A DNA stretch of 64,000 nucleotides. It comes from Escherichia coli. Its GTDB lineage: Bacteria > Pseudomonadota > Gammaproteobacteria > Enterobacterales > Enterobacteriaceae. The stretch lies in assembly GCF_045037415.1 (NCBI RefSeq), contig NZ_CP173438.1. One strand, written 5' to 3'. A program made the position numbers. Of the stretch, positions 61,601-64,000 are shown in pieces; positions within the stretch are counted from its first letter, which is position 1, and each line of letters starts with the position of its first letter.

Positions 61601-64000
61601 CAGCTACGCAGGTTTAACGCTGCCGCTGATGGCCTCGGCGACCGCCACGTTTCTGTTTCGCCAGTTCTTTATGACCCTACCGGATGAACTGGTGGAAGCC
61701 GCGCGGATCGACGGCGCGTCGCCAATGCGTTTCTTTTGCGACATCGTTTTTCCGCTGTCCAAAACCAATCTGGCGGCGCTGTTTGTGATCACCTTTATTT
61801 ACGGCTGGAACCAGTATTTGTGGCCGTTGTTGATTATTACCGACGTTGATCTCGGCACCACCGTGGCAGGGATTAAAGGGATGATCGCCACAGGCGAAGG
61901 CACAACGGAATGGAACTCGGTGATGGCGGCGATGTTGTTAACCCTGATCCCACCAGTAGTGATTGTTTTAGTGATGCAGCGTGCCTTCGTGCGCGGCCTG
62001 GTCGATAGTGAGAAATAAGATGGCAGGACTGAAATTACAGGCAGTAACCAAAAGCTGGGATGGCAAAACCCAGGTCATTAAACCGCTGACCCTTGATGTG
62101 GCGGATGGCGAATTTATCGTGATGGTCGGGCCGTCTGGCTGCGGGAAATCGACGTTATTGCGAATGGTGGCCGGACTGGAGCGGGTAACGACGGGCGATA
62201 TCTGGATCGACCGCAAGCGTGTCACCGAAATGGAGCCGAAAGATCGCGGGATTGCGATGGTGTTCCAGAACTACGCGCTCTATCCGCATATGAGCGTAGA
62301 GGAGAACATGGCGTGGGGGCTGAAAATTCGCGGCATGGGCAAGCAACAAATTGCCGAACGTGTTAAAGAAGCGGCGCGCATTCTGGAGCTGGACGGCCTG
62401 CTTAAGCGCCGCCCGCGTGAGCTATCTGGCGGTCAGCGTCAGCGTGTGGCGATGGGGCGTGCGATTGTGCGTGAGCCGGCAGTGTTCCTATTTGATGAGC
62501 CGCTCTCTAACCTCGATGCCAAGTTGCGTGTGCAGATGCGTCTTGAACTGCAACAGCTGCACCGTCGCCTGAAAACGACTTCACTCTACGTTACCCACGA
62601 TCAGGTTGAGGCGATGACGCTCGCCCAGCGAGTAATGGTGATGAACGGCGGCGTTGCCGAACAGATTGGCACGCCAGTTGAAGTGTACGAAAAGCCCGCC
62701 AGCCTGTTTGTGGCGAGTTTTATCGGCAGCCCGGCGATGAACCTACTGGCTGGCCGTGTGAATAACGAAGGTACGCATTTCGAACTGGATGGCGGTATTG
62801 CGCTGCCGCTAAACGGTGGCTACCGTCAGTATGTCGGGCGTAAAATGACCCTCGGCATTCGCCCGGAACATATAGCGCTAAGCTCGCAGGCAGAAGGTGG
62901 TGTGCCGCTGGTGATGGACACGCTGGAGATCCTCGGCGCAGATAACCTGGCGCACGGACATTGGGGCGAACAGAAGCTGGTGGTGCGACTGGCACATCAG
63001 GAGCGCCCGACGGCAGGCAGCACGCTGTGGCTGCATCTGCCGGAAAATCAGCTACATCTTTTTGATGGTGAAACAGGACAACGAGTATGAGTAACTGGCC
63101 TTATCCCCGCATCGTCGCCCATCGTGGCGGCGGTAAACTGGCCCCGGAGAACACCCTGGCAGCAATCGACGTCGGGGCAAAATACGGTCATAAGATGATC
63201 GAATTTGACGCGAAGTTATCGAAAGATGGCGAGATCTTCCTGCTCCATGACGACAATCTTGAACGCACCAGCAACGGCTGGGGCGTCGCGGGTGAACTGA
63301 ACTGGCAGGATTTACTGCGCGTGGATGCAGGCAGTTGGTACAGCAAAGCGTTTAAAGGTGAGCCACTGCCGTTGCTTTCGCAGGTGGCGGAACGCTGTCG
63401 CAAACACGGGATGATGGCGAATATCGAAATCAAACCCACCACTGACACTGGACCATTAACGGGCAAAATGGTGGCGTTGGCGGCACGCGAACTGTGGACC
63501 GGTATGACGCCGCCGCTGCTGTCATCGTTTGAGATTGATGCTTTAGAAGCCGCTCAACAGGCAGCACCGGAACTGCCGCGTGGTTTATTGCTTGATGAAT
63601 GGCGCGACGACTGGCGAGAATTGACCGCGCGGCTGGGCTGCGTCTCTATTCATCTCAATTATAAGTTGCTCGATAAAGCGCGAGTGATGCAGTTGAAAGA
63701 TGCAGGACTGCGAATTCTGGTTTATACCGTCAATAAACCCCAGCGCGCGGCAGAGTTGCTGCGCTGGGGCGTGGATTGCATCTGTACCGATGCGATTGAC
63801 GTGATTGGTCCGAACTTTACGGCCCAATAGTTTTCAACGGAATGTCAGGCTGCGGCGTGCTGGGCTGATTCAGCATGTCGCCGTTTCTCCTCTCCGGCAG
63901 CATATGCTGCTGATTCAACGAACTATCCGGATTACGGTTGCTGTTTAACATCCCGCCGTTGGTGTTGGGCAGCATTTGCTGCCGGGCGGGATTTCGCTCC

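Follow-up and report, generated by a model that had tools for sequence, protein, structure and literature searches.

The stretch of Escherichia coli DNA considered here (64 kb of contig NZ_CP173438.1, assembly GCF_045037415.1; termed the window, whose positions serve as coordinates unless stated otherwise) closes with the convergent gene pair ugpQ and yhhA. ugpQ is the final gene of the ugpBAECQ operon, which occupies the plus strand and is under Pho/cAMP-CRP (cyclic AMP-CRP) control, and it is followed at the window end by yhhA on the minus strand. The coding sequences (CDSs) of both genes share their 3'-terminal bases, and the arrangement is most plausibly an unremarkable tail-to-tail overlap between two protein-coding genes, both of them genuine, with hairpins inside the CDS of the respective partner setting the 3' ends of the transcripts. 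The features concerned are:

63087-63830, plus strand: ugpQ CDS, an ATG-initiated open reading frame (ORF) encoding a glycerophosphodiester phosphodiesterase of 247 aa, with the stop codon TAG at 63828-63830
63817-64000, minus strand: 3' part of the yhhA CDS, with the stop codon TAA at 63819..63817, open to the window edge at 64000
63817-63830, both strands: 14-bp convergent CDS overlap, reading TTACGGCCCAATAG on the plus strand

The 14-bp overlap at 63817-63830 had been proposed in a sequence-only reading of the window and was borne out by the ORFs, their translation and the RefSeq annotation: the ugpQ stop codon does lie inside the last yhhA codons, and the yhhA stop codon is located as claimed. 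The same segment codes for the UgpQ end ...T-A-Q-stop on the plus strand and for the YhhA end ...(T)-I-G-P-stop on the minus strand. That both ORFs are genuine protein-coding genes is documented by domain matches, RefSeq annotation and orthologues in 80 species as well as, for UgpQ, by a structure. UgpQ matches the Pfam GDPD domain over residues 12-238 of 247 (E 4e-56) and the chain of PDB entry 2otd, which has been crystallised and has the same length of 247 aa (E 2e-166). The yhhA gene starts approximately 257 nt past the window end, and the full protein comprises 146 aa (annotated at locus L001, 3818-4258) and belongs to the DUF2756 family (Pfam match over residues 1-105 of 146, E 2e-60); its glutamine plus asparagine (Q+N) content of 32% agrees with the former description of the minus-strand ORF as Q/N-rich. 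The N-terminus of YhhA resembles a signal peptide (MKRLLLLTALLPFVGFA), giving the protein a secreted appearance, while its Q/N-rich body features repeated NG(G/D/S)ML and QQHMLP motifs. Between genera the length of YhhA ranges from 92 to 172 aa, with variation in both repeat number and presence of the PLKTIGP tail. Regarding ugpQ, a genomic SELEX (systematic evolution of ligands by exponential enrichment) study recorded a peak of the sigma-28 (FliA) holoenzyme inside the gene, classified as class D intragenic (W3110/MG1655-type position 3585866; PMC5493296).

The ugpQ/yhhA overlap is already known: standard E. coli annotation includes it, and the pair figures in a published catalogue of convergent transcriptional overlaps. 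In the RefSeq record NZ_AP018784.2, which is 100% identical over window positions 63000-64000, both genes are annotated with the same 14-bp overlap, and this also applies to K-12-like, O157:H7 and clinical strains. Moreover, the junction is present in 5,423 of 5,426 complete E. coli genomes (171-nt query, at least 95% identity). Since the DUF2756 model stops short of the YhhA C-terminus, orthologues were employed to verify the yhhA frame. A UgpQ search in which each species was represented by a single genome yielded 80 Enterobacteriaceae loci, or 81 together with the reference, and a convergent yhhA homologue resides downstream of ugpQ in each of the 80. The C-terminus of YhhA reads PLKTIGP* in E. 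coli and PLKTITP* in the Salmonella-like form, and the motif P-x-(I/V/L)-P-L-K-T-(I/L/V/M)-(G/T/S)-P-stop recurs in Escherichia, the Citrobacter freundii group, Atlantibacter, Pseudescherichia, Cedecea, Buttiauxella and Salmonella. The underlying codons vary synonymously (TTG/TTA/CTG, AAA/AAG, ACT/ACG/ACC, GGG/GGA/GGT and CCG/CCT), and because synonymous changes up to the annotated stop are a protein-coding signature, the yhhA frame is correct. Hence the alignment upheld the frame, and the orthologues gave no indication of a true yhhA stop elsewhere. An annotation artefact, with a stop or frame misassigned in either gene and the overlap merely apparent, might be entertained inasmuch as some convergent overlaps in databases are misannotated 3' extensions and the DUF2756 model does not vouch for the YhhA C-terminus. 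It is nonetheless extremely improbable and was rejected in view of the YhhA motif kept in frame across genera with synonymous changes, the identical length of the 2otd chain, the fixation of the sequence in the 5,423 genomes and a 14-mer that is invariant in four Escherichia species.

The length of the overlap differs widely between relatives. Counted over the 80 non-reference Enterobacteriaceae species, the classes are distributed as follows:

4-bp overlap (stop on stop, TTAA or CTAA): 36 species
7-11-bp overlap: 4 species
14-bp overlap: 5 species, namely four Escherichia and Buttiauxella izardii
17-bp overlap: 6 species
20-bp overlap: 10 species
gap of 5-96 nt between ugpQ and yhhA: 19 species

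Thus, the CDSs overlap to some extent in 61 of the 80 species; Salmonella enterica has the 4-bp form. The 14-mer of E. coli recurs in E. albertii, E. whittamii, Escherichia sp. and B. izardii, and it is unchanged, flanks included, in 8 sequences representing 4 Escherichia species. Because overlap length is not conserved across the 80 species, the 14 bp themselves are no functional unit, and a conserved role of this particular length was ruled out. The conserved feature, as judged from these sequences, is the tight convergent packing of the two genes.

Across genera the UgpQ tail is highly variable and appears as FQP*, FQPC*, FTAQ*, FTAAG*, FSSAD* or FIY*, unlike the YhhA end, which is constant wherever the PLKTIGP tail exists. 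The last 3-7 residues of UgpQ, located outside the catalytic domain, would be free to vary between genera. When the junctions are aligned on the yhhA stop, Citrobacter displays ggatttccagccctgTTAAggcccaat and E. coli gaactTTAcggcccaaTAG, and this length difference of about 10 nt would have placed the Escherichia ugpQ stop 10 nt deeper in yhhA. With the stop shifted in this manner UgpQ ends in T-A-Q-stop, a terminus that would be read from the antisense of the conserved YhhA I-G-P-stop. The junction of B. izardii (L075, 3569-3582) is near-identical to that of Escherichia and includes the same 14-bp overlap, with UgpQ ending ...NFTAQ*, while its proteins are less close (UgpQ 80%, YhhA 64% identical); it could represent the ancestral state, convergence or gene transfer. 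In B. agrestis (L080) a gap of 96 nt takes the place of the overlap. Another variant occurs in Cedecea sulfonylureivorans (L079, ~3744-3790), where a 45-nt palindrome resembling repetitive extragenic palindromic elements (gtagggtggataagcg...gccatccaccac) parts ugpQ and yhhA and is flanked by two similar junction copies, TTAaagctcaaTAA and TTAaggcccaatc, which looks like an overlapped junction duplicated by insertion.

With both frames and stops being correct, each transcript reaches at least the last codons of the partner gene. The expectation that transcription of each gene reads into the other thus holds, as required by the positions of the stops, and the pair has been reported as a transcriptional overlap in RNA-seq data. 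On the contrary, the accompanying notion that the junction leaves no room for terminators fails, because terminators need not sit between the CDSs: strong terminator-like hairpins are found past both stops, each of them inside the CDS of the partner. A stable G+C-rich stem-loop, as looked for in a terminator, is present just past each gene, one per strand:

63852-63893, plus strand: candidate ugp terminator or 3' stabiliser, with the hairpin at 63852-63881 in yhhA codons G126-Q136
63726-63771, minus strand: candidate yhhA terminator or 3' stabiliser, with the hairpin at 63771..63738 in ugpQ codons P218-G228
63730-63890, both strands: predicted complementary zone of the ugp and yhhA mRNAs, ~160 nt long on the premise of hairpin-set 3' ends

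The plus-strand hairpin spans the region 21-51 nt past the ugpQ stop. Its 12-bp stem (GCGGCGUGCUGG/UCAGCAUGUCGC) includes 3 G.U pairs, and the U-rich tail behind it, CGUUUCUCCUCU, is weak. A terminator consensus scan of positions 63000-64000 returned one site only, consisting of this hairpin and the adjacent CGTTTCTCCT. Folding gave a free energy (dG) of -21.1 kcal/mol (z -3.3), and a hairpin plus U-tail score, computed over the whole window and both strands (798 segments of 160 nt), placed it in the top 1.3%. Due to the 3 G.U pairs the hairpin is sense-specific, with a dG of -21.1 in plus sense vs -14.6 in minus sense, and is hence 6.5 kcal/mol weaker antisense. Equivalent hairpins, all of which are more stable in the plus sense, occur in Escherichia, the C. 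freundii group, Kosakonia and Pseudescherichia; their 3' arm is the antisense of the YhhA NGDML codons, and the 5' arm differs in Kosakonia. In the C. freundii group the tail is better than that of E. coli (UUCUUUUUCUC, GUUCUUUUUCUC) and forms a canonical U-tract.

The minus-strand hairpin, which spans the region 46-79 nt past the yhhA stop, consists of CCCCAGCGC...GCGCUGGGG and the subsequent tail UUUAUUGACGGU (also given as UUUAUUGA). The simple scan skipped it, as its loop exceeds the 8-nt limit of that scan, and it was recovered by folding, which gave a dG of -24.0 kcal/mol (z -3.6); by the hairpin plus U-tail score it belongs to the top 0.3% of segments. The homologous 36-nt segment folds with a dG of -15 kcal/mol or lower in 71 of 81 Enterobacteriaceae loci, and 84% of the pair cells hold standard pairs vs 30-55% in slid controls. 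Covariation is sparse, amounting to one AU compensatory case (B. izardii) and six G.U cases that fit the minus strand only. Codon choice in ugpQ is peculiar here: Pro218 is encoded by the rare CCC in 72 of 81 loci, compared with 13% CCC and 66% CCG among the remaining proline codons of ugpQ, and Arg226 by CGC in 69 of 74 loci vs 50% elsewhere, with the proviso that these counts are not phylogenetically independent. Both codons are paired in a conserved stem of 9-10 bp, and ugpQ codons 218-228 are under strong synonymous-site constraint. Loci with Arg or Gln in place of Lys217 have a degenerate U-rich tail. In E. coli HD12480 (L087, 273-1435) an element of the IS3 family is inserted in ugpQ at about window position 63758, beside or within the internal hairpin; in this strain the yhhA annotation is that of a pseudogene interrupted by a stop codon.

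Taken together, formation of 3' ends would proceed not between the genes but at hairpins embedded in the partner CDS. For ugp transcripts the end would fall within yhhA, ~55-60 nt beyond the stop codon of ugpQ; for yhhA transcripts it would fall within ugpQ, ~80-90 nt beyond the stop codon of yhhA. Were 3' ends fixed in this way, the two mRNAs would probably overlap by ~160 nt. Rfam yielded no family match near the ugpQ/yhhA junction, and TERMITe holds no entry for either gene. SEnd-seq work by Ju et al. in 2019 reportedly uncovered bidirectional intrinsic terminators between convergent genes. Those pairs likewise combine convergent genes, 3' ends set by hairpins and overlapping 3' untranslated regions (UTRs), while for ugpQ/yhhA the role of the hairpins is the one we infer; in contrast to a single shared hairpin with A-/U-tract, two hairpins ~80 nt apart, each in the other CDS, are present here. 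A bidirectional terminator was accordingly dismissed, given the two distinct hairpins, the loss of 6.5 kcal/mol by the plus-strand hairpin in the antisense direction and the lack of an A-rich 5' flank.

Several observations weigh against the hairpins as the determinants of both 3' ends. The E. coli U-tracts are weak on either strand (CGUUUCUCCU on plus, UUUAUUGA on minus), and the minus-strand tail is poor in the C. freundii group (UCGGUUGA). Among the Term-seq entries of Adams et al. that are listed, none marks a 3' end in or antisense to ugpQ, with ugp being poorly expressed in the media used, and the only 3' end listed for the yhhA region is located 51 nt into the ORF (MG1655 position 3586994, plus strand; PMC7815308). 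The latter, recorded in two conditions, falls into the signal-peptide codons (L001 ~4208), outside the window (PMC7815308). In O157:H7 a T>C change breaks one pair of the plus-strand stem. This allele at window position 63862 (O157:H7 and strain 98232; L085, L086) amounts to YhhA S133G and converts a U-A pair into a C.A mismatch, so that protection of the stem within the species is not strict. As for the ugpQ-internal hairpin, it is equally stable on both strands, and most of its stem is also under conserved amino-acid constraint, with few true covariations; in light of the equal folding and the degenerate tail, its assignment to yhhA termination is again what we infer. Some of these points would suit an alternative without effective intrinsic terminators, wherein long read-through is ended by Rho, polymerase collision or 3' trimming and the hairpins are by-products of coding or barriers to exonucleases. 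Apart from the weak U-tracts and the lack of Term-seq ends at the hairpins among the entries listed, this alternative gains from the ugpQ hairpin stem covering the conserved residues PQR...RWG and from the proposal that head-on collisions of RNA polymerases aid termination between convergent genes (10.1101/2022.10.23.513370). It is nevertheless rather unlikely: two hairpins that both rank in the top ~1% of the window would hardly come to lie just past stop codons by chance, the use of CCC and the preference for CGC within the stem exceed the amino-acid constraint, and the plus-strand hairpin is sense-specific and accompanied by a canonical U-tract in Citrobacter.

Embedded hairpins also bear on a regulatory interpretation, since with them any transcription of either gene would be sure to produce an overlap of set extent. 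In the ExcludonFinder map of MG1655, yhhA-ugpQ is one of 165 convergent excludons that were detected in no fewer than 50% of 58 transcriptomes, and for 146 of these 165 pairs a terminator is predicted inside the transcription unit of the neighbour (PMC12288877). In this respect the pair, with its terminator-like hairpins inside the neighbouring unit, resembles the majority of its class, and provided that the mRNAs share ~160 nt of complementary 3' sequence, it would qualify as a convergent excludon in a descriptive sense. A far stronger claim is that the overlap is a selected regulatory device, i.e., a true excludon in which double-stranded RNA (dsRNA) serves as substrate of RNase III and renders ugp and the sigma-S-associated yhhA antagonistic. 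This claim can draw on the membership of the pair in the published MG1655 excludome, on the convergent arrangement in all 80 species plus Salmonella with overlapping CDSs in 61 of the 80, and on a sigma-S holoenzyme peak in the ggt/yhhA spacer detected by genomic SELEX (PMC5493296). On the other hand, overlap length is not conserved, ranging from -96 to +20 nt, and the authors of the excludon map were unable to validate convergent pairs through p19 capture of dsRNA (PMC12288877). Exclusive expression and processing by RNase III are the hallmark of excludons, whereas arrays show co-induction of yhhA and ugpQ instead: in an O157:H7 growth series, yhhA (log2 +2.48) and ugpB/E/C/Q (log2 +2.1 to +6.5) rose within the same cluster at the stationary transition, a pattern that speaks against mutual exclusion, albeit for one condition and one array platform. 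A true excludon is consequently unlikely. Antisense interference between ugpQ and yhhA may occur, and any such effect would probably be modest, given the stationary-phase co-induction. Equally doubtful is a related proposal by which the ugpQ-internal hairpin is no by-product of coding but a selected RNA element, its rare CCC codon fixed across Enterobacteriaceae, that ends or stabilises the yhhA mRNA, with the ~160-bp duplex coupling ugp and yhhA via RNase III. If true, each yhhA transcript would carry ~80 nt antisense to ugpQ, and the ugp operon of phosphate starvation would be coupled to the sigma-S-linked yhhA. The conserved hairpin would provide a clean test case for the encoding of a terminator antisense to an enzyme gene.

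The interpretation as an ordinary overlap of genuine genes with embedded, hairpin-set 3' ends is in keeping with the general picture of convergent packing, and statistically the ugpQ/yhhA overlap is not unusual. In a survey of 338 genomes, 3,035 of 42,055 overlaps between well-characterised genes (~7%) were convergent, and convergent overlaps were attributed to extension of 3' ends via stop loss or frameshift. Like the convergent overlapping pairs of prokaryotes in general, ugpQ and yhhA are two real genes on opposite strands that share their 3' ends, and their origin fits 3'-end extension; nothing essential sets them apart, the 14 bp being slightly above the modal 4 bp of relatives. Within the window 12 gene pairs are convergent, 2 of which overlap while 2 more are only 2-3 nt apart. 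Besides ugpQ/yhhA these are:

52836-52839, convergent: ataT/panM, 4-bp overlap
~45191-45194, convergent: yhhM/yhhL, 2 nt apart, a pair included in the published excludon list
~39937-39941, convergent: yhhS/dcrB, 3 nt apart, likewise included in the published excludon list

The caution to be drawn from ugpQ/yhhA is that a lack of intergenic space does not equal a lack of terminators, which E. coli often embeds in the CDS of the neighbour.

Two further RNA elements in the window, both remote from the junction, scored above the respective Rfam gathering score. At 7201-7285 on the minus strand, the AgrB antisense RNA (91.6 bits) is situated beside the dinQ toxin gene, and at 1021-1052 on the plus strand the shuA/chuA 5' UTR thermoregulator (60.1 bits) is located upstream of chuA.

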